From Lentisphaeria bacterium (GTDB lineage: Bacteria > Verrucomicrobiota > Lentisphaeria > JABSQK01 > JAWLHB01): DNA of 64,000 nt. Location of the stretch: positions 1 to 64,000 of the forward strand of contig JAWLHB010000009.1 in assembly GCA_041690595.1 (NCBI GenBank), written 5' to 3'. Shown here piece by piece: positions 7,831 through 26,141 of this stretch. Below the pieces are notes generated by a model that was not told where the DNA came from, did not search any database, and saw only the letters and a program-made list of their open reading frames with translations. Position numbers and translations under genes: made by a program. Positions within the stretch are counted from its first letter, which is position 1. Each line of letters opens with the position of its first letter.

Positions 7831-7921
7831 CTCGGTAGAAAGTGGGGCGTTGGGGAGGGGCGACGCGAATAGTGGGCACTCGGGAGAGTGGCGTTCGCGG
7901 GATGCGGGGGGCAGGGGGGAT

Positions 7922-8011: not shown

Positions 8012-8197
8012 GCGGAATGGGCAATGGGTGGTAATGTACGGGGCCGGTGGCAGCGTGGCAAGCAGTCCTGACGAGGAGATTCGGGGTGACAGCTTTTTTG
8101 AGCTCAGGGCAGGCAATTGGAGTTGCGTAAAGTGGTTGCAGCCTTTACCTGTAAGCAAGTCTTGAGGGAAGTCGCGGCACCTAACTGGAGGTCTGGA

Positions 8198-9865: not shown

Positions 9866-11145
9866 GCGGGCGCGAAGCGGCCGAAGCGATTTCGATGGCG
9901 GTAGCTGCGCGAGCAATCCGGCAGGGCCAATCCGCGCTTGAGCAGGTGCAGGTTGAGGTGGGTGCGGTTGGGCAAGTAGAGGTAGCCATACTCCTCCGCT
10001 CCCTCCGAATTCAAGGCGGGATCCACTTCAATGCTCACGTTCTGCCGGAGCGTCTGCTCGCGAAGGAACTGGACGGCGGCATCGCGCTGGCTGACGATCG
10101 GCACAATACCCGCCAGGCGGATGGTTCGGCCATCATCGAGCAGGACGCGATCCGGCTCGATGACGTCGCGGATACGTAAGGTCTGCTCTCTTGGCTGCTC
10201 CGCGTGATCGATCCGGGAACCATAGCGGCGCACCTTCGGATCCATCGTGCGCTCGACTATGAGCGGGTCGTGGAAGTGATAGGGAAGCGCGGCGCGGCCC
10301 GCTTCGAGGTCGCGGGGCGGTGCCTGCGAAATCTGGACATCGGTGCGCGTTTCGCTGAAAAGGTCATCGTTTTCGAGCCCGAGGCGACGGCGGATGACGG
10401 GCATGTAGTCGGGGTTGATCTCGTAGCCGACGCCGCGACGGCCGAGACGGCGAGCGGCATCGATGGTGGTCCCACTGCCGAGGAAAGGATCGAGCACGGT
10501 TTCGCCGGGGAAGCTGAACATGCGAATGAGGCGATGCGGCAGTTCGATGGGGAAGGCGGCGAGGTGTTCACCCTGCTTCACGCCGGGAAAGCTCCAGTGA
10601 CCGGAGAAATAGTCGTTCCATTCTTCGGTGGTCATGGCCGCAGCGGCTTTGGTTTCCTTGTCGACCTTCGGTTGCGGGCCCTGCTTCTTGAAGATGAGGA
10701 TGAACTCGTAATCGAGCTTGATGATGCCGTTTCGGGGGTGAGGGAAGGAGCCCATGATGCTGGCGCCGCCGCTGGTGTTGCAGGTGGTGACCTTGCGCCA
10801 GATGATGGCCCCCATGTAGTCGAGCCCGAGCGTCTCACAGCAGCGAATGATCTCGGTGCGGATCGGGATCACCTTGTAGCGCCCGTAGTAGGAGGAGCGC
10901 GCGAACTGATCGCCGATGTTGATGCACAGGCGGCAACCGGAGTGGAGGACGCGGGCGCATTCCTGCCAGACGAGGTTCAGGTCGTTGATGTAGGTCTCGT
11001 AACTATCGTGGTAGCCGAGTTGGTCGGAGCTGCCATAGTCCTTGAGCTGCCAGTACGGGGGGGAAGTGACGATCAGGTGAACGGCGTCATCCGCAAGTTC
11101 CGGCATGGCGCGAGCATCGCCAAGATGGATGTGGTGCTGCATCAT
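9859..11145 (-). CDS. Site-specific DNA methyltransferase (N4C/N6A, beta class) fused to a C-terminal thermonuclease (SNase)-like domain
   Basis: VTSPPY precedes DPFLGSGTT; C-terminal VIEPDRVLLDDGRTIRLAGI...YLYLPNRTHLNLHLLKRGLA. Confidence 0.85.
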   Translation of the reverse strand: MMQHHIHLGDARAMPELADDAVHLIVTSPPYWQLKDYGSSDQLGYHDSYETYINDLNLVWQECARVLHSGCRLCINIGDQFARSSYYGRYKVIPIRTEIIRCCETLGLDYMGAIIWRKVTTCNTSGGASIMGSFPHPRNGIIKLDYEFILIFKKQGPQPKVDKETKAAAAMTTEEWNDYFSGHWSFPGVKQGEHLAAFPIELPHRLIRMFSFPGETVLDPFLGSGTTIDAARRLGRRGVGYEINPDYMPVIRRRLGLENDDLFSETRTDVQISQAPPRDLEAGRAALPYHFHDPLIVERTMDPKVRRYGSRIDHAEQPREQTLRIRDVIEPDRVLLDDGRTIRLAGIVPIVSQRDAAVQFLREQTLRQNVSIEVDPALNSEGAEEYGYLYLPNRTHLNLHLLKRGLALPDCSRSYRHRNRFGRFAPAQ

Positions 11146-11288
11146 GGGGCCTTTGTCGTGGTGAAGGGTGATGGGCTCAAACCCTATCACACCCGCGGAA
11201 TGAAACAAGCCCGCATGATACGAGATCATGCGGGCAGTTCATCGCGATGGGGATGCTCTACAAAAGGCCGAAGCTCGCGAAGCTCCGG

Positions 11289-11903
11289 TTACTTCTTCGG
11301 ATGCTTGATCTTCTCGGCAGCCTGGGCGAAGTCGAAGTCGACGGTTTCGCCATTGGGCAGTTTGTACCGGGTCGGATCGTAGGTTGGGTTGGTCTCGTTG
11401 TGGCACCGGTAGCAGGTATTTTCGGCGGTGGGCTTGATCATGCCCAGCTCATAGCCGAGTTCGATGTTGTTGCGGTGCTTGGTCTTGTAGTCATTTCCGG
11501 GGCCGTGACAGGTCTGGCAGCTGATGGCTTCCTTGGCGGTGATCTCTTTGGTCACGGGTTCCTGGGTGAAACCGTAAGAGGTCGCGTGGCACTGCAGACA
11601 AGCGCCGCTGGTCTGAGGATCGTCGATGCCCATTTTGGCGGCAACTTCCTTGGCCTTGGCCGTGCCGAGGGTTTCGAAGGCGCGGGCATGTGGGCCGTCC
11701 TTCATGGCCTCCACCTGGTTGCCGGTGTTGTCCTTACCGTGGCAGAGCTGGCACGTTTTTTCCTTTACCAGCTTGTCGGGGTTCCAAGGGGCGAACTTGG
11801 AGCTATCGACGGGAGCCACTTTGGCGGTCATCGTCCAGAGGACGATCACAGAGGCGATAATGGCAACTTTCCAGATTGGGCGCAATGTCGTCTGTTTCAA
11901 CAT
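11289..11903 (-). CDS. Periplasmic tetraheme cytochrome c (c554-like)
   Basis: Signal/TM segment plus CQLCH, CLQCH, CQTCH, CYRCH. Confidence 0.88.
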   Translation of the reverse strand: MLKQTTLRPIWKVAIIASVIVLWTMTAKVAPVDSSKFAPWNPDKLVKEKTCQLCHGKDNTGNQVEAMKDGPHARAFETLGTAKAKEVAAKMGIDDPQTSGACLQCHATSYGFTQEPVTKEITAKEAISCQTCHGPGNDYKTKHRNNIELGYELGMIKPTAENTCYRCHNETNPTYDPTRYKLPNGETVDFDFAQAAEKIKHPKK

Positions 11904-11968
11904 GTCGGTGTCCTTTGTAATGAGGCGGTTTCAGCCTGCCGGGCAGGCGGGTGGTCTTAACTACAGGT

Positions 11969-13534
11969 TCAGAACGAAGCGCCGCCGCCATCGTGGCAGT
12001 CGGTGCAGAGACTTTCTTTCCACAGCTCCATGATATCTTCGGGGTGAACGAACTCCTGCGGCTCCGTCAGCCTCAACGGTTCATTGCCTCTGCTTTGAGC
12101 CACGATGTCATGGCAGGTTTCGCAACGATGCGAAATTGCCTTTCCTTCGCTGCTCTTCATGTTTCCACCGTGACAACGGAAACAGCCCTTGAAGAAGGTG
12201 TGCCCGATGTTGTCCGGGTGGGTCTTCCAGTCTACCATCATGGTGGGGAAGATATTGTTGTCGAAGAGTTCACCGATGGCGGTGGCCGAGGCGCGGATTG
12301 CCGGCTCGCGTTCGGCAAAGAGATCGGGGTACTCTTCCTTGTAGAAGTCATGGAGGCTCACGGCAATCGCCTCCTTTGCCTCTTCACGATCAGTGTACTT
12401 CTCCTTGAGGACACGCAGTCCTTCCCGCTTGATGAAGGGAAGTGAGCGATCGACCTTGCCCTGCAGCATGGCGCTGTTGAGCAGCCGTTGGGGGGGCTTG
12501 AACTGGTGAACGGAGCGATTGTGGCAGTCGATGCAATCCATCTCGTGTACCTTGTGTGTCGCCACGAGTTCGGCTTCGGTCATACCGATATCTTCCTTGG
12601 TGTAGGTAACCTCGCGTCCGTGCGCATCGACCAGCTTGACCCAGATGATATCCTGTCGTTGGCTATCGGATGCCATGTAGTAGACCTTGCTTGGGCTGGT
12701 GACATGCCAGTGAATGCTCGGTTGCGCGTCTTCGGTACTCAACACATCCAATTCCCCGCCGCCGACATGGACATGCAGGGCAGTCTGCACATGGGTGTTC
12801 TCTTCGTCGGGGAGAAAGTAATCATGCTTCTGTAAGATAGTACCGATAAATTTCTCAGGCCAATGGCACTGTTCGCAGATCTCATGCGCCGGGCGCAGGT
12901 GCTCGAGGGGTGTGGCGATGGGCCGATTGAAATTGCCGGTGGTGATCGCGACAAGCTGGTGCATGCCTCGCAGCTTATCGCGCACGTGGTGGGTGATTCC
13001 GGGGCCGGTGTGGCATTGGGTGCAATCGACGCGAGCGTGAGGCGAATTGGAATGGGCGATGAATTCCGGGTGCATCACCGTGTGGCAGATCTCGCCGCAG
13101 AACTCGCGGCTCTCGGCGAAGAGTACCGTACGATAGCTGCCATACGTCGATGCCACCAGGAAGACGATCAGGATGACGGCATAGAGGGGCAACCAGCGCC
13201 GTTGCTTGCGCGGGTCGAACCAGAGGATGCTCCGTTCGCCGGTCCGCTTCACATGCATGACCTGGATGACGAAGCCCAGCACTCCGATGCCGACGCCAAT
13301 ACCAATCATCGTCGGTACGACGGCGAAGGTGATGATGGAGAGATAGATGTTGCTATCCTCGCTACGGAACTCCACCATCAGCAGAAAGAGCCCGACGGCG
13401 AAACCGCAGAGTGCAATGAGCAGGCCCAGCATGGTGAGCCAGTTCCACCAGTGCCGGTGCCGCGATGGTTCGGGTGCCACGGTTGCTCCGTTCCCCACTT
13501 CCGGATTCTTGTCCCCGTGGTCCGTAACGCTCAT
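11969..13534 (-). CDS. NapC/NirT-like membrane-anchored multiheme cytochrome c (about 7 hemes)
   Basis: Three TM helices; CGEICH (CX3CH), CTQCH, CEQCH, CIDCH, CFRCH, CETCH, CTDCH; GGAGGAG RBS before ATG 13534. Confidence 0.88.
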   Translation of the reverse strand: MSVTDHGDKNPEVGNGATVAPEPSRHRHWWNWLTMLGLLIALCGFAVGLFLLMVEFRSEDSNIYLSIITFAVVPTMIGIGVGIGVLGFVIQVMHVKRTGERSILWFDPRKQRRWLPLYAVILIVFLVASTYGSYRTVLFAESREFCGEICHTVMHPEFIAHSNSPHARVDCTQCHTGPGITHHVRDKLRGMHQLVAITTGNFNRPIATPLEHLRPAHEICEQCHWPEKFIGTILQKHDYFLPDEENTHVQTALHVHVGGGELDVLSTEDAQPSIHWHVTSPSKVYYMASDSQRQDIIWVKLVDAHGREVTYTKEDIGMTEAELVATHKVHEMDCIDCHNRSVHQFKPPQRLLNSAMLQGKVDRSLPFIKREGLRVLKEKYTDREEAKEAIAVSLHDFYKEEYPDLFAEREPAIRASATAIGELFDNNIFPTMMVDWKTHPDNIGHTFFKGCFRCHGGNMKSSEGKAISHRCETCHDIVAQSRGNEPLRLTEPQEFVHPEDIMELWKESLCTDCHDGGGASF

Positions 13535-13925: not shown

Positions 13926-15419
13926 GTGAACATCATTCAACTAATACGACGAAGTGTGGCGAGCAAATTGATCCTGGCGGTCGTCGCCACCCTGCTCTTC
14001 GTGATCGCTTTCTACACCTATCTGGTGATGGACATGCGCGGCAACTGGCTGCAGGAACGTCTCACGCTTTCGCGATCGCTGGTGCATGCCAGTGTTTTCG
14101 AGTATTTCGTGCACACTCGCGGCACGCATCCGCCCGACCAGAACGAGCGTTTTCTTGCCCAGCTTGCCAAGCAGGCCGGCGCTACCTCCATGCATCTGGC
14201 ATCCCCCGATGCACTCGCGGAGACGCCCGAAGGCAGTGCCGGCGAAGCTCCTGCTCTGGCCGAGATCACCCTTTCCAGCTTCGGGCTTCTTGGCCGCCCC
14301 GCCGCCATCGCTCCCCCGCCCCCCGCGGAAGCGGAGCACTGGCGCGTTCAGGTGCCGCTGCGTGGCGGTCAGTACTGCGCCGATTGCCACGACGTTCCGA
14401 AGGATCGCCTCATGGCCTCCATCATGATCGACTATCCGCAGACCCTGCTGCGGCAGCTCCAGGGGAACGACCGGCTTCGCCTCGTCAAGTACGCGGCCCT
14501 CCTTCTCCTCGCGGTACTCGTGATTCTTATCGCCATCACCTGGCGCGTAGTGCTCGATCCTCTCTACCGGCTCACCCACGCTTTCGCGCGAGTGCAGCAG
14601 GGCGATCAGGATGCTGTCTGCACCATTGAGACCGACGATCAGTTCGGCCAGCTTGCCTCGGGTTTCAATGGCATGCTCACCGACATCCGGGCTCGTCAGC
14701 GCGACATGCGTCATGGCTATGAGAACCAGATTGCCCACGCGGATCGGCTGGCCACGGTGGGGCAGCTCGCCTCGGGCCTGGCGCATGAGATCAAGAACCC
14801 GCTGCACAGCGTTTCCGCGGCTCTCGCGATCCTCTGCAAGCGCATGAACGACCCGACGATGCGCGAAGTGGGCAACGAGATGAATGATCAGATCAAGCGG
14901 GTCACGCGCATCATCAACGACCTTCTTCGCTATGCGCGGCCGACGGAGCCCTGTTGCACGGCGCTGGATCTTGCACCGCTGATCGAAAAGACGCTCTGCC
15001 TACTGCGCCCGCAGGCCGGCAAGCAGGAGGTCAACCTGCAGGCAGTCCTGGATGCGCCCGGGACGCTGGTCTGGGGGGACGGTGAGAAGCTCACGCAGAT
15101 CCTGCTCAATCTTGCCTTGAACGGCATTCAGGCATGCCCATCCGGCGGCAACCTTTGCATCCATCTTCATGCCGAGGGCGACACCTGCATTCTCGATGTT
15201 GAGGATACCGGTCCGGGCATTCCCGCCGAGCTGCGCGAACGGATCTTCCAACCCTTCTTTACCACGAAGCACGACGGCAATGGCCTGGGCCTGGCCATCA
15301 CCCGTACGCTGGTCGAGCAGAATGGCGGCCAGATCGAAGTCTTGAGCCGCCCGGCCGGCGGGGGTACCTGTTTCCGCATCCGCCTTCCCGTTCACCGCCT
15401 TCCAGACACCCCGCATTGA
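13926..15419 (+). CDS. HAMP-HisKA-HATPase sensor histidine kinase with a periplasmic heme-c motif
   Basis: Two TMs; YCADCH between them; LAHEIKNPL H-box; N, G1 (DTGPGIP), F (PFFTTK) and G2 (GNGLGL) boxes. Confidence 0.92.
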   Translation: MNIIQLIRRSVASKLILAVVATLLFVIAFYTYLVMDMRGNWLQERLTLSRSLVHASVFEYFVHTRGTHPPDQNERFLAQLAKQAGATSMHLASPDALAETPEGSAGEAPALAEITLSSFGLLGRPAAIAPPPPAEAEHWRVQVPLRGGQYCADCHDVPKDRLMASIMIDYPQTLLRQLQGNDRLRLVKYAALLLLAVLVILIAITWRVVLDPLYRLTHAFARVQQGDQDAVCTIETDDQFGQLASGFNGMLTDIRARQRDMRHGYENQIAHADRLATVGQLASGLAHEIKNPLHSVSAALAILCKRMNDPTMREVGNEMNDQIKRVTRIINDLLRYARPTEPCCTALDLAPLIEKTLCLLRPQAGKQEVNLQAVLDAPGTLVWGDGEKLTQILLNLALNGIQACPSGGNLCIHLHAEGDTCILDVEDTGPGIPAELRERIFQPFFTTKHDGNGLGLAITRTLVEQNGGQIEVLSRPAGGGTCFRIRLPVHRLPDTPH

Positions 15420-15427
15420 GAGAAGCC

Positions 15428-16816
15428 ATGCATCAGTCTCCCCGCATCCTCGTGGTCGACGACGAGAAACTGACCCGCTGGGCCGTCATGGAGGAGCTGC
15501 GTGGCTCCGGTTACACCGAGATTCAGGAGGCGCCCAGCGCCGAATCCATGCTCGAGGCGCTTGCCAGCCAGAGCTTCGACCTCGTCCTTCTGGACATCGG
15601 CCTCCCCGGCATCTCCGGCGTCGACGGTCTGGTAGAGATGCGCCGCCGCAACCACGATGTCAATGTCGTCATGGTGACGGCCAACGACGATCCCGACGAT
15701 ATTCTGAAGTGTCTGCGCCATGGCGCCGTCGACTACCTCTGCAAGCCTTTCGACATTGCCGCGGTCTCCCAGTTGATCGAGCGCCACTGCGGGGGCTCGC
15801 AGCCGGCCGAACCACCTCCGGATGACGATGACCCTCTCGGTGCCTTCGTCGGCCAGTCGGAACCGATCCGGCTGTTGCGTCAGCAGGTTCGCAAGATAGC
15901 CGCGAGTGCGGCGCAGACCATCCTGATTCAGGGGGCCAGCGGCAGCGGCAAGAGCATTCTGGCACGTACGATTCATGCGCGGGGCCGCCGGGCCAAGCGC
16001 CCCTTCCTCGAAATCAACTGTGCCGCCCTGCCCGCGGCGCTTTTGGAAAGTGAGCTTTTCGGACACGAGAAGGGAGCTTTTACCGACGCGAAGGCGGCCA
16101 AGCAGGGGCTCTTCGAGCTGGCCAACGGCGGCGTCCTTCTTCTGGATGAGATCGGGGACATGGAAGCGCCGCTGCAGGCGAAGCTGCTCTCGGCGATCGA
16201 GGAGCGGCGCTTCAAGCGGGTGGGAGGGGTCACGGACATCGCCGTCGACGTCTGCCTCATCGCGACCACCAACGTGGATCTTGCGAGCGCCGTCGAAGAG
16301 GGGCGCTTCCGGCTGGATCTGTACTACCGGCTGAACATCGTGCCGCTGCATGTTCCCCCTCTGCGCGAGCACAGCTCCGACATTCCGCTCCTGGTGACCC
16401 ACCTGATCGAGCGGCTCAATAGCGACCTCGGCACGGAGATGCACGACATCAGCAAGGGGGCGCTGAGCCTCCTGCAGCGTTACGACTGGCCCGGCAACGT
16501 GCGGGAGCTCCGCAATGTCCTCGAACAGATCATGGTGCTGAACAGCGGCCCCCGCCTTATGGTGGACCATCTGCCCGCCGATCTGGTAAAATCGGTCATG
16601 GGGGCGAATGCACCCGTGATTCCCGTTCAATCATCGCCGCGAAGCCCCGTCACGGAGCTTCTCGAACAAGGTCTCAGCCTCGACGAAGTGGAGCAGGAGC
16701 TTATTCGGCAGGCGCTTGCCCAGAATGACGGCAATCTCAGCCAGGCGGGGCAGAAGCTCGGCCTTCACCGGGATACCCTTCGCTACCGCGCCCGCAAGTA
16801 CGGCCTCATCGATTGA
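15428..16816 (+). CDS. NtrC-family sigma54-dependent response regulator
   Basis: REC domain (ILVVDDE, LLDIGLP), GASGSGKS, ESELFGHEKGAFTDA, WPGNVRELRN, Fis-type HTH. Confidence 0.95.
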   Translation: MHQSPRILVVDDEKLTRWAVMEELRGSGYTEIQEAPSAESMLEALASQSFDLVLLDIGLPGISGVDGLVEMRRRNHDVNVVMVTANDDPDDILKCLRHGAVDYLCKPFDIAAVSQLIERHCGGSQPAEPPPDDDDPLGAFVGQSEPIRLLRQQVRKIAASAAQTILIQGASGSGKSILARTIHARGRRAKRPFLEINCAALPAALLESELFGHEKGAFTDAKAAKQGLFELANGGVLLLDEIGDMEAPLQAKLLSAIEERRFKRVGGVTDIAVDVCLIATTNVDLASAVEEGRFRLDLYYRLNIVPLHVPPLREHSSDIPLLVTHLIERLNSDLGTEMHDISKGALSLLQRYDWPGNVRELRNVLEQIMVLNSGPRLMVDHLPADLVKSVMGANAPVIPVQSSPRSPVTELLEQGLSLDEVEQELIRQALAQNDGNLSQAGQKLGLHRDTLRYRARKYGLID

Positions 16817-18148
16817 CTATTCCGTGGCGCGGGTGCCGTGTCGGGTGGTGAGGGTGTAGGAGAAGCGGCTCGTGGTGCGTGGTGAAAGATCGAGGGTGTG
16901 GCGGAAGGTGTCCATGTCGACCTTGCTATAGTCGCCGAACTCTCCCTGATGGGTAACCTCCCAAACGGTGCTTTCGGTGACATTACGGGTGAACTCCAGG
17001 CGAATGGGAAGGGGGCGAGTGTTCTTGATTTCGACCTCGACGGTACGGATTTCATCCCAACCGACGATGTTCTCCTGCTGGTTGAAGCGATAGTTGACGG
17101 TGCGATACTCCATGAGGGTTGGCTCGACGAGAATCGTGTCAACGGGGCCGAGATTGAGTTCGACTTCTTCGTCGACGGGGATGTACTGGAAGGAGGAGCG
17201 ACCTTCGTAGGAGAGGTGAGCGTCCTTGCCGGTGTCGCGGTAGACCATGAGGGCGCCGCCGGGGATGGGCGTCTCGCCCAGGTGGTGATCGCGGTCGTTG
17301 AGGAAACTGAGGAAGCGAACGGGGCGGCTTCCCCACCGCTCCGCTTCGAACTTGTAGAGGTTGACGACGGGAATGGCGTCGGCTTCGAAGCTGGGAAGGC
17401 GTTTGGACCAGCCGTCGGGGATGGTCTCGGTGCCTTCGATGGTATAGAGGAAGTATTCGCTGAGCCCCTCCTTGACGATCTTCTTCTCTTCCATGTTCAT
17501 CACTACGGGGGCGGGCGCCGCCGCGTCGTAGAAACCGGCCATGACCTTTGGCTTAGCGGACGGCCTCGGCGCCTGTGGAGGAGGGGGCACGGGACTGCCG
17601 TACGGGGGATATCGGCGGGCCAGGTTGGCGATCTGGTCGAGCAGATGAACCTTGCCGACAATGAGACGCGTCTGGGCGTTGGCGTACTCCTCGCCGCTGG
17701 CGTTGGTGACGACGACGTAGCCCCGCAGGTGCATGGTCGACTCGTCGGGAGTCAGGGTACCCATGTAGAAGGCGCGCCAGGAGATGCCGCTGGTGAAGCA
17801 GGTGATCTCCATGGGGACGCCGCCGGCATGGCGACTGTCAATGCTCCAGATGCCCAGATCCCGTAAGCGGGGAGGAAAGACGAGGGCGTGAACATCAATC
17901 CGGTCGGCATGATCGAGGGGAAGCATGCTGAGACTGGTGGGGTCGATGAGGGTGTTGGCCCAGGAGAACTGGAGGCGGTTGAGCCCCTCCCGCAGGGTCA
18001 GCATCCGGCGTTCGCGGACGAGAGTGAGGTCGGCGGAGTTGTAGATGGTGAGCTGCACGGAGTCGCGCTCGGGCAGGGTCACGAGATCGATGCCGGCCTG
18101 GGCGGTCGTGGCCAGGGCGAGCAGGATGAGGAAGAGGGGCCGTTTCAT
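16817..18148 (-). CDS. Secreted DUF4139-like protein (paralogue 4)
   Basis: Signal peptide (..ATTAQA); QLTIYNSADLTLVRE, FSWANTLIDPTS, KEGLSEYFLYTIEG. Confidence 0.8.
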   Translation of the reverse strand: MKRPLFLILLALATTAQAGIDLVTLPERDSVQLTIYNSADLTLVRERRMLTLREGLNRLQFSWANTLIDPTSLSMLPLDHADRIDVHALVFPPRLRDLGIWSIDSRHAGGVPMEITCFTSGISWRAFYMGTLTPDESTMHLRGYVVVTNASGEEYANAQTRLIVGKVHLLDQIANLARRYPPYGSPVPPPPQAPRPSAKPKVMAGFYDAAAPAPVVMNMEEKKIVKEGLSEYFLYTIEGTETIPDGWSKRLPSFEADAIPVVNLYKFEAERWGSRPVRFLSFLNDRDHHLGETPIPGGALMVYRDTGKDAHLSYEGRSSFQYIPVDEEVELNLGPVDTILVEPTLMEYRTVNYRFNQQENIVGWDEIRTVEVEIKNTRPLPIRLEFTRNVTESTVWEVTHQGEFGDYSKVDMDTFRHTLDLSPRTTSRFSYTLTTRHGTRATE

Positions 18149-19470
18149 TCCGCTCTCCGTCCGTTATGCTGGGTGTGGGTGTAGATGAACTCGATGGAGG
18201 AACGGGGCTTGAGTTCCAGCTCATAGCGCACGGTATCGAGGTCGATTTTGGTGTACTTGCCATAGTCGCCGGAGCTGGCGATATCCCACGAGGGGGAGGG
18301 GAAGTTGCGGGTGATGTGAAGGCTGACGGGGAGGTCGCGGGTGTTCTTGACCTCGACCTTCCAGGTGCGGATTTCGTCGAAGCCGTCAATGTTGCCGAAG
18401 CGATCGAAGAGGTAGCGAGCGGTGCGGTACTCCATGAGGGTGGGCTTGACGATGACGTTGGCTACCTGGCCGAGGTTAAGTTCGACATCTTCGTCGACGG
18501 GGATGTACTGAAAGGAGGAGCGGCCTTCGTAGGAGAGGTGGGCGGCTTCGCCGGTGTCGCGATAGACCATGAGGGAACCGCCGGGGATGGGGGTCTCCCC
18601 GAGCTTGTGACGGGTGTCGTTGGCGAAACTGACGAAGCGCACCGGCAGAGCCCCCCAGCGCTCTTCCTCGTACTTGTAGAGATTGGCGACGGGGACATCG
18701 CCGACGGTGAAGCTGGGGAGGCGCTTGGACCAGCCGGTGGGGATCGTCTCTTCGCCCTCGATGGTGTAGAGGAAGTACTCGCTGAGCCCTTCCTTGCGGA
18801 TTTCCTTGCGGAGAAGCACTTCGCTGGCAGCCATTTCCTTGCGGACCTCGCGTCCGGCGCGGCGGCGTGCATCCATATCGACCCGATCCTGGGCGCCGAC
18901 ATCACTTGGAGCAGGTTGGCCATAGGGTGGCTGGCGCTGGGCGAGGGCGGCGATTTCGTCGAGAAGGTGAACCTTGCCGACGATGAGGCGGACCTGGGCA
19001 CGGTCGTAGTCTTCGCCACTGGTGTTGGTGACGCGGACGTAGCCCTGCAGGCGCATGGTGGTCTCGTCGGTGGAGAGGGTGCCCATGTAAAAGGCACGCC
19101 ATGCGATGCCGCTGGTGAAGTAGGAGATCTCCATGGGGACTTCGCCCCCGATCTGACTGTCGATCTTCCAGATGCCGAGGTTCTGAACGCGGGGCGGGTA
19201 GTCGAGGCTGAAGATCTCGAGTTGCGCAGCGTGATCGCGAGGAGTCATGTCGAGGCTGGTAGGATCGATGAGGGTGTTGGCCCAGGAGAACTGCAGGCGG
19301 TTGATGCCCTGGCGCATGGTGAGGGCGCGCCGGTCTCGTACCAGGGTGAGATCGGCGGAGTTGTAGATGGTGAGCTGGGTGCTTTCGCGGTTCGGCAGGA
19401 TGACGAGGTCGATGTTGGCCAGCGCGGGAAGCGCCAGCAGCATGGCGAGACAGAGAGATGGGATTTTCAT
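18145..19470 (-). CDS. Secreted DUF4139-like protein (paralogue 3)
   Basis: Signal peptide MKIPSLCLAMLLALPALA; same conserved blocks; AGGAG RBS. Confidence 0.8.
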   Translation of the reverse strand: MKIPSLCLAMLLALPALANIDLVILPNRESTQLTIYNSADLTLVRDRRALTMRQGINRLQFSWANTLIDPTSLDMTPRDHAAQLEIFSLDYPPRVQNLGIWKIDSQIGGEVPMEISYFTSGIAWRAFYMGTLSTDETTMRLQGYVRVTNTSGEDYDRAQVRLIVGKVHLLDEIAALAQRQPPYGQPAPSDVGAQDRVDMDARRRAGREVRKEMAASEVLLRKEIRKEGLSEYFLYTIEGEETIPTGWSKRLPSFTVGDVPVANLYKYEEERWGALPVRFVSFANDTRHKLGETPIPGGSLMVYRDTGEAAHLSYEGRSSFQYIPVDEDVELNLGQVANVIVKPTLMEYRTARYLFDRFGNIDGFDEIRTWKVEVKNTRDLPVSLHITRNFPSPSWDIASSGDYGKYTKIDLDTVRYELELKPRSSIEFIYTHTQHNGRRAE

Positions 19471-19490
19471 GGGGGTCATGCTCCTGTGCT

Positions 19491-20609
19491 TCAGCGTACG
19501 TTGCGGCGGTGGTATTGCATCATCAGCTTCTGCTTGGCCTTGGGAGCGAGATGAATCTCGAACTCGAGGGTGTTCGCATCCTTTTTGGTGAAGTCGAGGC
19601 TGCACTCGATCATCTCCCATTCGCCGGGGATGCGCTGGATCATGGTGAGGGTGGCGGGCGAATCCTTGAAGTTCTCGATCTCGGCCTCGATCAGCTCATC
19701 GGTGTCGTAGAGGATGATGGTATTGGCGTTGTTGCGACGGATGTTGATATGCTTTTCGCGCATCTTGCGTTGGGTGACGACGATGTCGCGGCTGTCGCCG
19801 ATGTAGACTTCCATCTTCTCGCCGACGGGGACGAGTGCGGTGTTGTCTTCGCCGAGGAAGATGGTACTGCCGTGGCCATCGTGCTGAAAGACGCGCATCT
19901 TGCCCCCCCAGAGGGCATTTTCGCCAAGGCGGCCATCGGTAGTGTTGGGGATGCGGTAGGAGACGGGAATGCCGATGTTGCCGTCCACCTTTTCGGGATC
20001 CCACGGCAGGGTGGCGGCGTCCCAGGTCCAGACTTTTTCGATGGGCAGTTCGCTCTTGTTGAAGAAGAGGAGCTGCTTGGTTTCCTCATGCTGGATGCCC
20101 TGTTCGAAGGCGGCGCCATAGTCGAGAAGGACCTGGGCCTCGGCGAAGTCCTCACCGGAGAAGTTGCGGAGGATGAGGTACGAGCGGAGGTCGAGCTTTT
20201 CTTCCGCCTTGTCGGCAACGCCTTTGTAGGTGATCAGGCGGTCGATATTGCTGAGCAGATAGCTGATGCGCACACGCTCTTCGTAGGGCTCCGGGCTGGC
20301 GATTTCCCAGATGAGGGCTGCTTCGTTGGGGGGATAGCTGACGTTGAGCAGCTTGACCTCGTCGGGATGGCCGAGGACGGTGAGGCGGATGGAGTCGCTG
20401 TCGATGCTGACGCCCTTCCAGGAGAAGTCGACCTGATTGAGTCCTTTCTGGAGGGTAAGGGTGCGTTCCTCCTCGATGAGGGTGGCCGTGGGATTGTCGA
20501 GGCGAATGACGGTGGCGGCACGTTCAGGCAGAGCGACCAGTTTGACGCGCGCCTGAACGGCGAGAGACGAGGTGAGCAGGGCGAGCAGGAGGGGGATGGT
20601 GCGGTTCAT
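19491..20609 (-). CDS. Secreted DUF4139-like protein (short divergent paralogue 2)
   Basis: Signal peptide; VKLVALPER, EERTLTLQKGLNQVDFSW, NFSGEDF; lacks the KEGLSEYFLY block. Confidence 0.75.
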   Translation of the reverse strand: MNRTIPLLLALLTSSLAVQARVKLVALPERAATVIRLDNPTATLIEEERTLTLQKGLNQVDFSWKGVSIDSDSIRLTVLGHPDEVKLLNVSYPPNEAALIWEIASPEPYEERVRISYLLSNIDRLITYKGVADKAEEKLDLRSYLILRNFSGEDFAEAQVLLDYGAAFEQGIQHEETKQLLFFNKSELPIEKVWTWDAATLPWDPEKVDGNIGIPVSYRIPNTTDGRLGENALWGGKMRVFQHDGHGSTIFLGEDNTALVPVGEKMEVYIGDSRDIVVTQRKMREKHINIRRNNANTIILYDTDELIEAEIENFKDSPATLTMIQRIPGEWEMIECSLDFTKKDANTLEFEIHLAPKAKQKLMMQYHRRNVR

Positions 20610-20623
20610 GGTATGGTCTCGGT

Positions 20624-22294
20624 TCAGCGGTTTTCGGCGTTGATGCCGTGGTAGGTGCGAAGGGTGCAGGTGATGATAGTTTCAGATTGAGGAGAGACAT
20701 CGAGCGTCCAGCGCAGGTGGCTGGCATCGTGTTTGACGGGATTGATGCTGGCGGTCTCGATTTGCCAGTGAGGGGTGCCGATATTGAAGGTAGATTCGAG
20801 GCGAACGGGGAGGCCGCGACGGTTGCCGAGGGTGAGCTTCCAGCTCTTGACCTCGTCCCATCCGGCGATGTTGCCTCCCCGATCGAACCGGTAGTTTTCG
20901 CTGCGCTGGTCCATCAGGAGCCTCTCGACCGAGACCTTTTTCGCGGGACCAAGCTCGAGTTCGACCTTGTCGTCGACGGGAATGTACTTGAGGTCGGCGC
21001 GGCCCTCGTAGGTGAGGTGATCGGGGGCGGGCTGATCGACGCGGCGGAAGATGCGGGTCTGGCCTTCGGGCAGGGGAGTCTGACCGAGATTGTGGTCCGA
21101 ATCGTTGGCGAAATAGAGGAAGCGCATGGTTGCGTCGCCCCAGCGATCGGGGTCGTGCTTGTAGAGGTTGCGAACGGGAATATCGGCGACGGAGAAGGAG
21201 GGGAGGCGCTTGCCCCAGCCGTCCGGAATGGTATCGCGCCCCTCGATGGTGTAGAGGAAGTATTCGCTGAGACCTTCCTTGAGGATTTCCCTGGGGAATG
21301 CCTTCTGCCGATCATGGTCGCGGTAATCCTCCACATGGCCATCGATAAACAAGGCGTATGGCCAATCACTCACCGGGGGCCTCCGGGATACAGGCACGGA
21401 GTCGAGCGGGGAGCCATAGGCGGGCTGGCGCTGGGCGAGTTGGGCAATCTGCTCCTTGAGGCGGACTTCGCCGACGACGAGACGCACCTGGGCGTTGTCG
21501 TACTCTTCGCCGCTGCCGTTGGTCACGCGCACATGGCCATCGAGCTGGAGATGGCTTTCATCCTGGCTGAGGGTGGCGAAATAGACGGCATTCCAGCGCA
21601 GGCCACTGGTGAAATAGGTGACATTGAAGGGTACCTGACCGCTGACGTGCGAGTACATCAACCAGCGACCGACACCCGGCAGACGCGGGGGATAGACAAG
21701 CTGCCGCACCTCGACACGCCCCTCGCCATCCTGGGGCAGCAGTTCGAGCGAGGTGGGATCGATGAGGGTGTTGGCCCACATGAACTGCAGCCAGTTCCAG
21801 CCCTGCTTCATGGTCAGTTGGCGGGTTTCGCGCACCAGGGTGAGATCGGCGGCGTTGTAGATGGTGAGTTGCACGTCGTCCCGGCGGGGGAGGACGTTGA
21901 GTTCGATGTTGCTGGCCGGCGCGAACGGCGGCTTGGCATCGGGGGAGATGCCGTAGGCCGGAGGCGGCGGTGCCGAAGCCGGCGCCAAGAACTGCCGGAG
22001 CACCAGTGCCAGGACCAGCGCGGCGGCCGCCGCGCCAACCAGCAAGGGGAGGATGCGGAGTGCACGACGGGGGCGGCTCGCGGCGGCAATGGCGGCGGCG
22101 ACCAGTGGCTCCGGTGGGGTGGGATCTTCGCGCAGGAGTTCCAGGTGCGCCAGACGTAGACGCAGGTCGGCCAGGCGTTCACGGCAGGCTTCGCATTCGG
22201 CAAGATGGGCGTCTGTTGCCAGGCGCAGCGGCTCGTCGAGGACGCCGATCTGGTAATCGACAAGCCGATCCTGACTGAGGTGCTGGCTGGTCAT
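20624..22294 (-). CDS. Zinc-finger (ZAS) anti-sigma factor fused via a TM helix to a DUF4139-like extracytoplasmic domain
   Basis: H-x24-HLAECEAC motif; TM ILPLLVGAAAAALVLALVL; Pro-rich linker; then QLTIYNAADLTLVRE...KEGLSEYFLYTIEG. ATGA overlap with the sigma gene. Confidence 0.85.
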   Translation of the reverse strand: MTSQHLSQDRLVDYQIGVLDEPLRLATDAHLAECEACRERLADLRLRLAHLELLREDPTPPEPLVAAAIAAASRPRRALRILPLLVGAAAAALVLALVLRQFLAPASAPPPPAYGISPDAKPPFAPASNIELNVLPRRDDVQLTIYNAADLTLVRETRQLTMKQGWNWLQFMWANTLIDPTSLELLPQDGEGRVEVRQLVYPPRLPGVGRWLMYSHVSGQVPFNVTYFTSGLRWNAVYFATLSQDESHLQLDGHVRVTNGSGEEYDNAQVRLVVGEVRLKEQIAQLAQRQPAYGSPLDSVPVSRRPPVSDWPYALFIDGHVEDYRDHDRQKAFPREILKEGLSEYFLYTIEGRDTIPDGWGKRLPSFSVADIPVRNLYKHDPDRWGDATMRFLYFANDSDHNLGQTPLPEGQTRIFRRVDQPAPDHLTYEGRADLKYIPVDDKVELELGPAKKVSVERLLMDQRSENYRFDRGGNIAGWDEVKSWKLTLGNRRGLPVRLESTFNIGTPHWQIETASINPVKHDASHLRWTLDVSPQSETIITCTLRTYHGINAENR

Positions 22295-22842
22295 GTGAGA
22301 ACTCCATCGGGGAGACGTTGGGCGAGGGTGCGCATGGCTCGGGACATCTGGGTCTTGACGGTACCAAGCGAACAGCCGAGACATTCGGCGGCTTCGGGGT
22401 ACGTCATCTGCTGGTAGTAAACGAGGATAAGGGTGGCGCGCTGTCGCGGGGGCAGGGAGTCGATGGCGGCCCGCACCAGCCGCTTGAGGTCGCCGCTCTG
22501 GGCGGCTTCGTCGGGAGAAGGATCGTCACCGAGAATGGGGTCGGCCTCGTCGACCCCGACCAGTGTGGGACGTCGTCGCGCCCAGCGGAATCGGTCGGTG
22601 GCGAGGTGACTGGCGATGCCATAGAGCCACGGCTTGAAGGGGCGCCCATCGCGGTACTGATGGCGGCGGCTGGCCACGCGCTCAAAGGTCTCCTGAAAGA
22701 GATCCTCGGCTTCCTGACGATTGCCGCAGAGGCGCAGGAGATAGCCGTAGAGCGGCGAGCTGTAGCGGCGGACCAGGTCGCCGAAGGCGGTCGCATCGCC
22801 ATGTTGCCAGCTTTTCATGAGGGTTTCGTCCGTGGGATCCAT
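22291..22842 (-). CDS. ECF-type RNA polymerase sigma-70 factor
   Basis: AEDLFQETF, FKPWLYGIA, LPPRQRATLILVYY..TYPEAAECLGCSLGTVKTQMSRA. Confidence 0.95.
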   Translation of the reverse strand: MDPTDETLMKSWQHGDATAFGDLVRRYSSPLYGYLLRLCGNRQEAEDLFQETFERVASRRHQYRDGRPFKPWLYGIASHLATDRFRWARRRPTLVGVDEADPILGDDPSPDEAAQSGDLKRLVRAAIDSLPPRQRATLILVYYQQMTYPEAAECLGCSLGTVKTQMSRAMRTLAQRLPDGVLT

Positions 22843-22869
22843 CTTCGCCTGTTGTCCTTCTGATGGCTG

Positions 22870-22898
22870 TTACGCCAGAAGAGCTCATCCGGTTGACA
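22870..22898 (-). promoter_or_regulatory. Putative autoregulatory ECF promoter
   Basis: Minus strand TGTCAAC-N17-CGTAA fits the generic ECF AAC...CGT pattern, 27 nt upstream of the sigma ATG. Confidence 0.5.
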
Positions 22899-22995: not shown

Positions 22996-25296
22996 TCAGG
23001 GCAGCGGGAGGATGCGGACGGGGATACCGGGAGCGAGCTGAAAGCGCAGCCGGTGTCCATCGGCAGTGGCGGTAACAGGCTGATCCTGGCCGGAGACGAT
23101 GCGATAGCTTCCGGCGGCATGCAGAAGGGTGCAGGTGCACGCTTGCGCGGCGGTGACGGTGGCTTCGGTGAGGTTGCCGTCCTTCCACGCGATGTCGACC
23201 GTCAGGCCGCCCCGCGCACGCAGACCGGTGACGGTGCCCCCTGGCCAGGCCGTGGGCAAGGCCGGGAGAAGGTGGAGTTCGTCGTGGTAGCTCTGCAGGA
23301 GCATCTCGAGAACAGCCGCGGTGCCGCCGAAGTTGCCGTCGATCTGAAAGATGCGTGGCGGATGAAGGTCAAGGAGGCTATCGGTGGCAAAGTCGGTGAT
23401 GAGGTGACAGAGATGCTCCCAGGCCGGCTCGGATTCGCCGAGGCGGGCCATCAGGCAGGCGACCCACGAGCGACTCCAGCCGGTGTGGCCGCCGCCGGCC
23501 GCCAGGCGTCGCTCCAGCGAAGTCCGTGCCGCCAGCCACAGCTCCGGTGTCCGTTCCGGATCGAAGGCATCGCCGGGGAAGAGGCCGATCAGGTGCGAGA
23601 AGTGCCGATGCTGGGGCTCCAACTCCTCGAACTCCTCGTTCCATTCGAGCAGTTGCCCATGGGAGCCGATCTTGAGTTCGGGAAGGCGGGCGATCATGTC
23701 GTCCCAGGTCGCTTGCAGATCGTGGTCGATATCGAGGAGTCGGGCGGAGCGCAGGGCGTACTCGAGGGCGTTGCGGGCGAGTTGCACATCCATGGCGCTG
23801 TTGACGCAGAGGGTGACCGGCAGAGAGCCGCCGCCGGCAAAGCGGTTTTCGGGGCTCTGCGAGGGGACAATGACCAAACCGCCATCGGCATTCTTGATGC
23901 AGTAGGATTGGTAGAAGGCGGCGACTTCCTTGAAATAGGGATAGGCGCGGCGGGCCAGAAAGTCGCGGTCGCGTCCAAATTCCCAGTGCCACCAGAGATG
24001 CTGTGCGAGCCATGCGGCGGCGCCGATCCAGGCGGCCCAGCCATGGGATTCGGCGGTGGAGCGTCCCCAGGCATCGGTCTGTATAGGAAGCCAGATGCCA
24101 TCACAGCCGTAGTAGTCGCGGGCGGCTTTTCGGGCATGGGGGACAAAGCGCTCCAGGTACCGGAAGAGCGCCTCGGTGGTGTACTGGAGGGCGCCGGCCT
24201 CGGCGGGCCAGAAGTTCATCTGGAGATTGATGTCGTGGTGGTAATCGCATTGCCATGGCGGATCGAGCTCTTCGTTCCACTTGCCCTGCAGGTTGGGCGG
24301 CAGTTCGCCGGTGGCGGTGGAGGCGACCAGCAGGTAGCGGCCATAGAGGAAATAGAGCAGCGGCAGGGTAGGATCGGCAGCGGCGTCCTGCCTGAGGCGC
24401 GCCAGCCGCTCATCGGTGGGGCAGTCTCCGGCTTCGTCGCCGGCAAGCTCCATGATCAGGTCGCCGGAGAAACGCCGATAGGCATCGACATGGCTGCTGA
24501 CCAGCTCCAGCCAATCGGCATGGGGAAGGTGGTGACGCGCGCACTCCGCCGCGGGAGCTTCCATCTTTGCGCTGGTGCCGACATCGAGAGCCACGAGGAT
24601 CGCGGTGGCGCCGGCAATGCGCACCTGCGTTCCCGAAAGGGTCGCATGGCCGTCATGTGAGACGACTCGCGCCTGGGTACGGAAGCCGATACCGTGGTGG
24701 AATTGCCCGTCCATGATCAGCAGGTCGGCGCTCGTCTCGAAGCGCAGATGACAGTCGGGATCGTCGACACGGGAGAGCTGGAGCGTGGCGGCAAAGGGGC
24801 GGTCAGCGCAGATGCGGACGAGGATGAGATCATGGTCGATGTGGGCCAGATACTCGTGACGGTAGCGCGCCCCGTCCGCCTGGTAGGATATCGTCACGAT
24901 TGCCTGCTCGAGATCGAGTTCGCGCCGGTAGTCGTTTGCGGCGCCGTGATCGAGAGAGATTGTGAAGTCGCCGGCGGGCTGATAGGGATCGACCTGGCAT
25001 GGTGCCTCCTGCCGCCGGGTGCCGCCGCCCCCTCCGAAAGCGTCATTGCCGGCAATGGTGCCCTGTTGGTAGTCACCGGCGAGCAGCAGCTCTCGCACCT
25101 CGTCCAGCCGGTGGGCGGCGGGCTTCGGTTCGCGGCAGCGATTGGCGCCACGCCAGAGCCACTCGTGATTGAGGGCAAGCCGCTCGCTGTCGGGAGGGCC
25201 GATGACCATGGCGGCCAGGCGGCCGGTGCCGATGGGAAGTCCATTGAGAAAGGAATCGGACGGATGGGTGTACCAGAGCTTTGCTGCCATGATCAT
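22996..25296 (-). CDS. GH95 family alpha-L-fucosidase-like glycoside hydrolase
   Basis: [57 protein letters not shown]. Confidence 0.92.
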
Positions 25297-25307: not shown

Positions 25308-26141
25308 CTAGCGTTGAAGAGGAAGAACCCGATGAAAAAAGGTGCGAATGACGCCGGCGACAACCGGCCAGTTCCAGGAGTCGCGGCCGTGGTCGCCGCC
25401 GGGCTCCTCATGATACTCGATATCGGCGCCGACCGCGCGCATGGCGGCGACAAAGGTACGCGACTGGGAGATATCGATAGTGGAGTCGTCGGTGCCATGG
25501 ATAATAAGGGTGGGCGGCAGGTGGGCGCCCACCCAGTTGAGGGGGCTGAGTGCCTGGGCAAGCGACATGTCTTCGCCATAGGGCTGCCCGAAGAGGCAGC
25601 TGAGCATGGCGACGTATTCGGCCGCGCGTGGGTGGCCGTGGATCTCTTCCGCGCAGGAGAGGTCGGTCGGTCCGGAAAGGGCACATACTGCTTTCAAGGG
25701 GGGGACGGGTTGACCGTCGAAGGCCGGATCGCGCCAGAGTTCGTGGGGAGGAGAGGCGGCGGCAAGGAGGGCCAGGTGGGCCCCCGCGGAACCGCCGGAG
25801 AGGGCCATGCGGCGGCTGTCGATGCCATACCTGGCCCCGTGGCAGCTCAACCAGCGCAAGGCGGCCAGGCAGTCGTGGAGATTTCCGGGTGCCGGGCATT
25901 CTTCCGTCAGCCGGTAGGCGACATCGGCGATGGCATAGCCTTCGTTTGCCAGAAAGCTGACATAGGGATTGCCTTTATCGCCTTTGAGCCAGCCGCCGCC
26001 ATGCAGCCAGACAATGACGGGGGCGGGACGCCGCTCCGGCAGGTAGAGATCCAGGCAGAGCGATCGCTCTGGGCGCCGCACGTAGACGAGGTCCGCCACG
26101 GTCGGCCGCGGCCCCTCAATTGGATGTAGAAGTTCTGGCAT
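25308..26141 (-). CDS. Alpha/beta hydrolase (HSL-like esterase)
   Basis: HGGGW oxyanion motif, GGSAG nucleophile, HGTDD and GDHG. Confidence 0.9.

Follow-up and report, generated by a model that had tools for sequence, protein, structure and literature searches.

The window, i.e. the whole stretch of 64,000 nucleotides that was analysed, contains an operon of five genes on the minus strand, in which the gene of an ECF sigma factor is followed by that of an anti-sigma factor whose extracytoplasmic part is a paralogue of the proteins secreted by the same operon. With moderate confidence, we interpret this locus as a self-contained module for envelope signalling in PVC-group bacteria, which would regulate its own expression and whose products would bind to its sensor.

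The minus-strand genes follow each other in the order sigma (22291-22842; ORF of 183 aa), anti-sigma fusion (20624-22294; ORF of 556 aa), g3, g4, and g5. The short (s-type) secreted paralogue g3 (19491-20609; 372 aa) has a signal peptide ending in ...VQA. The two long (L-type) secreted paralogues are g4 (18145-19470; 441 aa) and g5 (16817-18148; 443 aa), the latter with a signal peptide ending in ...AQA. The length of g4 is counted from the second ATG, which has an AGGAG 10 nt before it; an earlier ATG at 19479 would give 444 aa. The sigma and the fusion gene overlap by 4 nt in an ATGA (22291-22294), and an ATGA is also shared by g4 and g5 (18145-18148). The gap between the fusion gene and g3 comprises 14 nt (20610-20623), and that between g3 and g4 20 nt, provided that g4 begins at its second ATG. 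The tightly coupled five-gene operon of the first-pass annotation, with these ORFs, overlaps and gaps, was thus reproduced. Directly upstream of the operon, the window encodes GH95 and an esterase.

Judged from its sequence, the product of the first gene is an ECF (group IV) sigma-70 factor that consists of the sigma-2 and sigma-4 domains only. It scored 61.9 bits for Sigma70_r2 (cut-off 24) and 61.6 bits for Sigma70_r4_2 (cut-off 25.7) in Pfam, and 109 bits for TIGR02937 (cut-off 42.9) in NCBIfam. The restriction to these two domains and a length of about 180-200 aa define group IV, and the protein has both properties. The best NCBIfam equivalog, PRK12513, reached 132 bits and stayed under its cut-off of 206. 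The nearest solved structures were SigE and SigW.

An ECF-type promoter (22872-22897, minus strand) with a GTCAACC element at -35, a CGT element at -10 and a spacing of 16 nt was identified by sequence and pattern match; its predicted 3' end lies 29 nt upstream of the sigma start codon. This agrees with the AAC-N17-CGT promoter that had been noticed ahead of the sigma gene. In related loci, the consensus TGTCAACC-N16-CGTCT occurs approximately 53 nt upstream of the sigma gene, and the strict form AAC-N15-18-CGT was present in 65 of 74 loci. This conservation is compatible with autoregulation. A search of the genome for further targets, which the first-pass annotation had suggested, added none: the pattern GTCAACC-N15-17-CGT gave 62 matches versus 108 for the reversed control. 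When a PWM built from 47 related promoters was applied, the operon's own promoter ranked 11th among 68 matches above 14 bits, and neither the pattern nor the PWM scan of the genome yielded a convincing further target. A possible site was noted on contig C23, 122 nt upstream of a gene whose secreted product has at least 1000 aa. Of the sequencing runs, only five DNA runs contained small shares (0.05-0.13) of the words, and no RNA run was listed.

The anti-sigma fusion consists of a ZAS domain, one membrane helix, a Pro-rich linker and a DUF4139-like ectodomain. At the N-terminus, H5-x24-H30-x3-C34-x2-C37 satisfies the class-I ZAS motif H/C-x23-26-H-x3-C-x2-C. The predicted zinc ligands, H5 (22280-22282, minus strand) and H30-x3-C34-x2-C37 (22184-22207, minus strand), were invariant in all 44 aligned fusions, and the H-x24-HxxxCxxC motif was found exactly where it had been placed beforehand. 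The Pfam domain zf-HC2 reached 21.1 bits, just below the gathering cut-off of 22.2, and matched 20 of the 44 fusions at E <= 0.01; the model is short and was missed narrowly, and no residue of the motif is lacking. A profile of the N-terminal part of the fusions matched the solved structures of ChrR (E = 1.1e-3, with H and HxxxCxxC in register) and RsiW (E = 8.5e-3); RslA was matched too. The ZAS part of the fusion would be expected to hold the sigma factor encoded immediately upstream. The single membrane-spanning segment (residues about 81-99; 21998-22054, minus strand) was recognised by eye as a hydrophobic stretch of the translation; its residues A90 and A91 are conserved across the alignment of 44 fusions. 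Immediately N-terminal to the ectodomain lies a PPFAPAS junction (residues 122-128; 21911-21931, minus strand), of which P123, F124, P126, and S128 were invariant in the 44 fusions. The linker that precedes it varies in length and sequence among the same proteins. The free paralogues lack this junction, which may have a role of its own, for example as a protease site.

The ectodomain (residues 129-556; 20627-21910, minus strand) is all-beta and DUF4139-like. Its Pfam score for DUF4139 (PF13598, cut-off 31.8) was 41.3 bits, and those of g4 and g5 were 39.6 and 36.9 bits; DUF4139 was also matched in 44/44 fusions. The family assignment of the first-pass annotation was therefore upheld in Pfam for these three proteins but not for g3 (18.2 bits), and its zf-HC2 domain stayed just under the cut-off. 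The homology of g3 to the family is indicated by the alignment and by phmmer cross-scores. Identity to the fusion domain is 49-50% for g4 and g5, and 23% for g3. Three shared motifs are common to the fusion, g4 and g5, which agrees with the earlier view that the ectodomain is a copy of the domain of the free paralogues. The protein g3 had been described as a divergent copy. It does lack the middle block, but it is not degenerate: it shares 63-73% identity with 42 orthologues, and in a family tree calculated by means of FastTree its type forms a clade of its own with 100% support. For comparison, g5 and 52 relatives share 54-63% identity, and g4 and g5 cluster together with 99% support. On these sequence grounds, g3 represents a distinct and the best conserved subfamily rather than a decayed copy. 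The sensor domain clusters with L-type proteins in L006, L041, and L069, three fusions that belong to one lineage, so that the subfamily used as sensor is not strictly the same throughout.

The AF2 models of g3 and g5 had pLDDT values of 73 and 75, respectively; the g5 model is all-beta with a disordered middle (residues 158-239). A Foldseek search against the PDB gave no match at E <= 0.001, the best being the mu-homology domain of mu2-adaptin (2.5e-3). In a wide fold search, the best matches were a GH51 accessory sandwich for g5 (Z 8.3) and a mu-homology domain for g3 (Z 7.4). Since such matches are at the level of a generic beta sandwich, the fold is uninformative on function. A sequence profile of g5 relatives found nothing under E 0.07 in the PDB, and in the protein atlas only DUF4139 clusters of Planctomycetota were matched.

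The arrangement recurs in other genomes and is shared by hundreds of uncultured bacteria. In species-representative genomes, 213 relatives were found and 80 loci were retained, which belong to Planctomycetota (by record title Phycisphaerae), Kiritimatiellales/Pontiella, and Lentisphaerae. Recurrence on this scale places the arrangement beyond chance. The sigma gene lies directly upstream of the fusion gene in 74 of the 80 loci. An operon end was counted as visible if at least 1 kb followed the last family gene, and 40 loci qualified. An s-type paralogue was present in 38 of these, and s- and L-types occurred together in 37. With S denoting sigma and A the fusion, the commonest order was S-A-s-L (n = 20), followed by S-A-s-L-L (n = 7), which is the layout in the window. 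The gene order proposed for inspection is hence well conserved. At one locus (L057), no recognisable paralogue was present in 7 kb of downstream sequence. Full-length relatives of the fusion were aligned with a coverage of 99-100%, and all 12 that were fetched contain the N-terminal H...HxxxCxxC.

These data also bear on the suspicion that an assembly chimera or a frameshift had merged the genes of an anti-sigma factor and a DUF4139 protein. Forty-four aligned proteins, which come from independent assemblies, share this fusion together with its junction motif, and the fusion is also seen among the full-length matches, so that an artefact has a negligible probability and was ruled out. The fusion is genuine and conserved in related genomes.

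Outside the S-A-s-L core, neighbouring genes were not conserved across lineages. Among 99 neighbour ORFs scanned out of 115 candidates (16 were dropped, mostly because they were cut by a contig end), 16 were upstream ThuA/isochorismatase-like genes and 12 were downstream DUF7544 genes. As both kinds are confined to some of the loci, and different genes flank those of Pontiella and Lentisphaerae, they are read as lineage synteny rather than as a component of the system. Some loci contain accessory genes for a serpin, AhpC/TSA-type fusions or CarboxypepD_reg proteins. Genes of the Site-2 protease family were seen at three places in the genome.

The first-pass annotation had envisaged a hetero-oligomeric periplasmic assembly, and one contact of such an assembly is now predicted. 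For the ectodomain and g3, the one pair that was covered, complex prediction gave a median score of 0.80, whereas the best of three controls scored 0.00. Of 157 solved complexes, 116 reached the mark applied to this score, as did 2 of 215 mismatched pairs; these counts hold only roughly here, since alignments compiled in this analysis were used. The runs agreed in at least 93% of the contacts, and partner pLDDT was at least 87. According to the model, the contacts of g3 fall on motifs of the anti-sigma factor that are common to the long paralogues: 42 of the 66 anti-sigma contact residues are identical in g4, compared to 166 of 361 in the rest of the domain, and the corresponding values for g5 are 41 of 66 and 175 of 361. 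The predicted interface is asymmetric, as only one of the 67 contact residues of g3 aligns with a contact position of the anti-sigma factor. Conservation of the g3 contact residues does not exceed that of the remaining protein (0.84 versus 0.85), and on the anti-sigma side the contact residues are only slightly better conserved (0.77 versus 0.70). Because close cousins of a true partner can pass the test as well, the real partner may be another protein, or g3 may be one of several.

It is plausible to combine these observations as follows. Sequence and comparison establish the order of the genes, their domains, the conservation of both, the zinc ligands and the promoter. The ECF sigma factor would be kept at the membrane by the anti-sigma factor's class-I zinc domain. 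A short paralogue of the g3 type would dock on an ectodomain surface built from motifs shared with the L-type proteins, and the stability of the anti-sigma factor would be set by the occupancy of the sensor with operon products. Alternatively, free L-type proteins might compete with the sensor for g3 and thereby set this stability. The sigma factor would most likely be released via regulated proteolysis. We infer both this release and the direction of the feedback, by which anti-sigma stability would determine the level of transcription from the operon's own promoter.

A more specific version is conceivable, which we regard as doubtful. Anchored in the membrane, the ectodomain might serve as the first subunit of a hetero-oligomer in which DUF4139-like proteins join head-to-tail, and its proteolysis would depend on whether it is capped, extended or bare. 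The long paralogues, which would have both contact surfaces, could extend the chain, and the short paralogue would cap it, as its missing middle block would provide one of the surfaces. If this were true, the cell would use a mimic of a subunit to gauge how its own secreted structure is assembled. Such a principle of sensing would be new for ECF systems and would give a first mechanistic access to the MuiA/DUF4139 superfamily.

Among known systems, SbrI/SbrR-MuiA of P. aeruginosa (ECF35), with McGuffie et al. 2016 as the primary paper, is the closest. According to a review, in its passages on this system, muiA is driven by the ECF sigma factor SbrI (PMC10418997). Both systems combine an ECF sigma factor with a single-pass anti-sigma factor, and SbrI is linked to a MuiA-family target and to envelope stress (PMC10418997; PMC7826278, relevant parts). 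In contrast, muiA is a target of SbrI, and these passages mention neither an anti-sigma fusion nor sets of paralogues (PMC10418997). The group description in the ECF supplement lists ECF35 as 100% proteobacterial, with anti-sigma factors that have one TM segment and in some cases periplasmic TPRs (PMC7826278); by this description, the window differs in taxonomy and in the ectodomain. When the proteins of the window were compared to the MuiA family TIGR02231 (cut-off 112.6), the best was g4 with 28 bits (E = 8.5e-7), and nothing in the whole genome exceeded the cut-off. They are therefore distant relatives and not members of the family. The earlier statement that DUF4139 is functionally uncharacterised needs context, because relatives carry the NCBIfam name MuiA and muiA, according to the review, is driven by SbrI in P. 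aeruginosa.

Other systems resemble the module in parts. SigW-RsiW of B. subtilis and SigE-ChrR of Rhodobacter share the class-I zinc anti-sigma domain with its H...HxxxCxxC motif. However, RsiW has a short, unrelated ectodomain, ChrR is soluble with an unrelated cupin as its C-terminal part, and neither is known to have paralogous secreted partners. In RpoE-RseA-RseB of E. coli and AlgU-MucA-MucB (ECF02), a sigma factor and a single-pass anti-sigma factor are accompanied by a periplasmic protein that binds the outer domain of the latter and governs its proteolysis. The operon order is similar, and g3, by its predicted contact with the ectodomain, would fill the role of RseB. RseA differs in that it is no zinc anti-sigma factor and that its periplasmic domain is not paralogous to RseB. 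Moreover, g3 has no match to an RseB/MucB family in Pfam, and no RseB-like chain was among the fold-search matches listed for the g5 and g3 models; the likeness is one of proposed role only. In its logic, the proposed module is similar to RseB guarding RseA or to CpxP feeding back on CpxA. In SigI-RsgI of Clostridium thermocellum, the outer sensor of the anti-sigma factor copies a module of the secreted proteins under its control. The logic of a sensor that copies a product is the same, whereas the sigma family and the N-terminal domain of the anti-sigma factor are different, and the sensors are known carbohydrate-binding modules. We know of no proposal that sensor and product bind each other directly in SigI-RsgI.

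An RsgI-like function is possible for the operon, albeit in our view tentative: the ectodomain and the paralogues might bind the same polysaccharide or envelope component, which would then induce its own binding proteins, and the predicted contact with g3 would arise because members of the family generally tend to self-associate. The weak structural neighbours include CBM2, chitin-binding modules and accessory sandwiches of glycoside hydrolases (Z 6-8), yet these matches are of a quality that any beta sandwich would attain. The host lineages Phycisphaerae, Kiritimatiellales/Pontiella, and Lentisphaerae are reportedly polysaccharide degraders, and GH95 and esterase genes are the immediate upstream neighbours in the window; beyond the S-A-s-L core, however, the neighbours differ among lineages. 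Furthermore, no ligand site was identified, and the complex prediction passed strongly with controls at 0.00.

It is rather unlikely that the operon is a simple envelope-stress module like SigW/RsiW or SbrI/SbrR-MuiA, in which an insult would trigger proteolysis of the anti-sigma factor and the paralogues would be protective effectors. The similarity of sensor and effectors would then reflect only the origin of the fusion and have no role in signalling. A single-pass zinc anti-sigma factor beside an autoregulated ECF sigma factor is the commonest ECF layout according to the pertinent part of the supplement (PMC7826278), and SbrI and MuiA reportedly respond to osmotic shock and cell-wall inhibition, as stated in the review's passages on them (PMC10418997). 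The serpin, AhpC/TSA-type and CarboxypepD_reg genes of some loci would also suit such a function. However, the ectodomain is full-length and well conserved in 44/44 fusions, which would hardly be expected of a domain without a role. In addition, its family motifs make up the predicted contact surface, and most loci have an s-type gene after the fusion. We therefore favour the autoregulated module, in which products of the operon would bind to the sensor.

The first-pass annotation knew of no description of this arrangement, and none in which an ECF sigma factor occurs alongside a ZAS-DUF4139 fusion and its paralogues was found in the literature searched. DUF4139/PF13598 is not mentioned in the first 357,196 characters of the ECF supplement (PMC7826278). 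Literature matches for DUF4139, PF13598, DUF4140, and PA1494 were unrelated or unhelpful.

ECF sigma systems constitute the third great mode of bacterial signalling, and to our knowledge the sensed signal is not known for most of them. Here, the anatomy of the operon suggests a physiological signal, as the sensor is paralogous to the operon's own secreted products, one of which is predicted to sit on it. The finding thus bears on the question by which means an ECF system could monitor what it produces and on the role of DUF4139/MuiA-like proteins. The system occurs widely among Planctomycetota, Kiritimatiellia, and Lentisphaeria, in all of which few regulators have been studied.

Five open reading frames on the minus strand occupy positions 16817-22842 of the window. 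They encode a sigma factor (22291-22842, 183 aa), the anti-sigma fusion (20624-22294, 556 aa), the short, s-type protein g3 (19491-20609, 372 aa), and the long, L-type proteins g4 (18145-19470, 441 aa, or 444 aa from an earlier ATG at 19479) and g5 (16817-18148, 443 aa). The stop codon of sigma and the start codon of the anti-sigma gene share an ATGA, as do the corresponding codons of g4 and g5. The fusion and g3 are separated by 14 nt, and g3 and g4 by 20 nt, provided that g4 starts at the ATG located 10 nt after AGGAG. These junctions are those read in the first-pass annotation, whose observed features (reading frames, junctions, domains, motifs and promoter-like site) were all recovered.

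Pfam assigns Sigma70_r2 and Sigma70_r4_2 to the sigma factor; among solved proteins, SigE and SigW are closest to it. The suspected DUF4139 domain scored above its cut-off in the fusion, g4 and g5, and below it in g3 (18.2 versus 31.8). The fusion, g4 and g5 carry the three shared motifs; in the alignment of the window proteins the middle block is absent from g3, as had been claimed. In the fusion, the zinc motif H5-x24-H30-x3-C34-x2-C37 is complete and is followed by a single hydrophobic segment (residues about 81-99) and a Pro-rich linker, although the zf-HC2 score of 21.1 bits falls short of the Pfam cut-off of 22.2. A profile built from residues 1-90 of the fusions, compared with solved proteins, matched ChrR (E 1.1e-3, zinc ligands aligned), RsiW (E 8.5e-3) and RslA (E 0.013).

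A histidine kinase (13926-15419, plus strand) and a sigma-54-dependent response regulator (15416-16816, plus strand) converge on the operon; the last base of the regulator, 16816, touches that of g5, 16817, leaving zero intergenic bases. Directly upstream and on the same strand as the operon are genes for a GH95 glycosidase (22996-25296, minus strand), which ends 98 nt before the operon's -35 element, and a BD-FAE-type esterase (25308-26141, minus strand); no such neighbours were seen among the related loci scanned. The G+C content of positions 1-12000 is 0.51-0.56, versus about 0.62-0.65 elsewhere. This left end encodes a SEC-C motif protein (2678-3706, plus strand), a 1235-aa SIR2_2-domain protein (4123-7830, plus strand) and an N6/N4 DNA methylase (9859-11229, minus strand), and could represent a defence or mobile island.

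The fusion, used as a protein query, retrieved 7372 proteins at E <= 0.001 among 8000 candidates scored, and many of the best 120 matches cover 98-100% of the query. All 12 relatives fetched share the architecture of the fusion: an N-terminal H...HxxxCxxC domain, then a hydrophobic segment, a variable linker, and the ectodomain. Across 44 aligned fusions H5, H30, C34 and C37 are unchanged, and so is PPFAPAS, a motif that immediately precedes the ectodomain and that the free paralogues lack; the linker differs greatly in both length and sequence. The common layout and the invariant junction exclude a chimera.

With one genome per species, 213 stretches coding for a relative were found. For the best 80 of these, reading frames were called and scored against the five window proteins; these loci are labelled Sedimentisphaerales, Phycisphaerae, Kiritimatiellales/Pontiella and Lentisphaerae/Victivallales, and some come from bins labelled Pirellulales. 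The gene order sought in relatives is conserved: the fusion is directly preceded by sigma in 74 of the 80 loci. Among the other six, one shows a gap of 678 nt, a second lacks a recognisable fusion, and in four no sigma gene was recognised; three of these four start at, or at most 220 nt before, the fusion gene, and the fourth (L071) offers 870 nt before it. An s-type gene is present in 61 of the 80 loci, and 17 of the 19 loci without one stop no more than 330 nt beyond the last family gene. When the comparison was confined to the 40 loci with at least 1 kb beyond the last family gene, 38 contained an s-type gene and 37 both s- and L-type genes. The order sigma-fusion-s-L is most frequent (20/40), followed by that of the window with two L-type genes (7/40); an exception is locus L057, which has no paralogue despite 7 kb downstream.

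In about 14 loci the fusion and s-type genes are separated by additional secreted-protein genes (for example L014:8914-10359, L039:5308-6915, L041:7498-8772 and L050:9167-10129). Their products are a serpin, whose gene in L041 begins 15 nt past the fusion gene, a DUF2330 protein, CarboxypepD_reg-repeat proteins, and proteins of about 535 aa that have an AhpC/TSA domain at the C-terminus; these genes may give a clue to the target of the system.

No second DUF4139 match was found in the window's own genome (8.1 Mb, 99 contigs). Within its phylum, g3-type genes occur in 16 of 301 sampled genomes, this one included, and in none of the 2 genomes of the same order or the 69 of the two listed families of the same class; the system thus has a patchy distribution in the phylum.

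The first-pass annotation had called g3 the divergent copy. This holds for its identity to the fusion (23%, versus 49 and 50% for g4 and g5), yet g3 shares 63-73% identity with other s-type proteins, compared with 54-63% for g5 and other L-type proteins, which marks g3, by sequence identity, as the most constrained member. A FastTree phylogeny was calculated from 139 domains, one fusion being left out for want of the cut motif. The s-type proteins form a single clade on a long branch (100% support), and 40 of 43 fusion domains fall into one clade (99%). The fusions of L006, L041 and L069, which belong to one lineage, fall among the L-type proteins, with the L gene of L041 itself as neighbour; this placement suggests that their domain was replaced or that a fusion occurred a second time. 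Five free proteins (L003:10119-11510, L013:10251-11645, L016:10220-11608, L052:13987-15381 and L066:8454-9785) branch just outside the main fusion clade. By this topology they are a fourth free subfamily, termed A-like, beside the fusion ectodomains and apart from other L-type proteins, which occurs only in loci with several L copies. Window g4 and g5 pair as sisters (99%), pointing to a local duplication.

The ECF-type promoter noted before sigma is present in the window as a promoter-like GTCAACC-N16-CGT (22872-22897). In related loci, TGTCAACC-N16-CGTCT lies about 53 nt before the sigma start, and a strict AAC-N15-18-CGT was found in 65 of the 74 loci with enough upstream sequence; most others have GGT or TGT instead of CGT. 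The -10 region of the window reads CGTAAC, versus CGTCTA. Such conservation before sigma fits autoregulation. Genome-wide pattern and PWM scans added no further targets. One PWM match in the same genome (contig C23:1034-1072; 18.7 bits versus 17.8 for the operon's own site) lies 122 nt before a reading frame of at least 1000 aa with a signal-peptide-like start, and may represent either a further target or a coincidence. Many Planctomycetota loci (L010, L023, L036, L046, L058 and others) contain a conserved A/T-rich element with a consensus near ATTTTACAAAAAATTTAC some 20-40 nt ahead of the -35 element. It is missing from the window, Pontiella and Lentisphaerae loci and could be an UP-like element or the site of a second regulator.

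AF2 models of g5 (pLDDT 75, with a disordered middle at residues 158-239) and g3 (pLDDT 73) are all-beta, and fold searches returned generic sandwich matches alone (mu-homology domains, CBM2-type modules and glycosidase accessory domains; Z at most 8.3). The first-pass annotation proposed a hetero-oligomeric periplasmic assembly; complex prediction supports one pair of it, the ectodomain (fusion residues 118-556) with g3 (residues 22-372). The median score was 0.80, compared with 0.00 for the best of three controls. Of 157 solved complexes 116 attain that mark, as do 2 of 215 mismatched pairs; this calibration is only roughly valid here, as own alignments were used, and the test can be passed also by cousins of the true partner. 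Contact agreement between runs was at least 93% and partner pLDDT at least 87. The predicted anti-sigma contact surface draws on family signature motifs, including the QLTIY strand, LVYPPR, VGxVxL, PYGSP and LSEY; the middle block absent from g3 forms part of it in the fusion and the L-type proteins. The ectodomain has the g4 residue at 42 of 66 contact positions, versus 166 of 361 elsewhere in the domain. The predicted interface is not symmetric: of the 67 contact residues of g3, a single one aligns with an anti-sigma contact position. From the shared motifs and this asymmetry we infer that g3 could dock on L-type proteins as it does on the ectodomain in the model, and chains ending in g3 are conceivable.

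The best overall reading, to which we attach an evenly balanced confidence, is that occupancy of the sensor by the operon's own products controls the anti-sigma factor and thereby the operon's promoter. The ZAS domain would hold sigma while g3 occupies the ectodomain, with L-type proteins perhaps competing or joining. Loss or change of occupancy would open the anti-sigma factor to proteolysis, for which the conserved PPFAPAS junction is a candidate site; genes of the site-2 protease family lie at three places in the genome. Freed sigma would then transcribe the operon from its own promoter and restore the product pool. It is rather doubtful that the system instead senses a shared ligand in the manner of RsgI, and less probable still that it is an ordinary envelope-stress module whose sensor resembles its products for historical reasons only.

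The nearest described system to this putative occupancy sensor is SbrI/SbrR of P. aeruginosa, which is reported to drive muiA (PMC10418997). According to the PMC7826278 supplement, SbrI belongs to group ECF35, which is 100% proteobacterial and whose anti-sigma factor carries periplasmic TPRs in some cases. The MuiA family is TIGR02231 by NCBIfam naming; the window proteins match it weakly, at 28 bits at most for a cut-off of 112.6, and are distant relatives and not members. DUF4139 is unmentioned in the 357,196 characters of the supplement that were covered, and a later ECF group could still describe the context. Full-text literature searches found no paper linking DUF4139 to a sigma factor, in agreement with the first-pass annotation, which knew of no description. 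The system, real and conserved, is an undescribed variant of the theme of ECF sigma and zinc anti-sigma factors, and it comes with a specific, testable idea of sensing.
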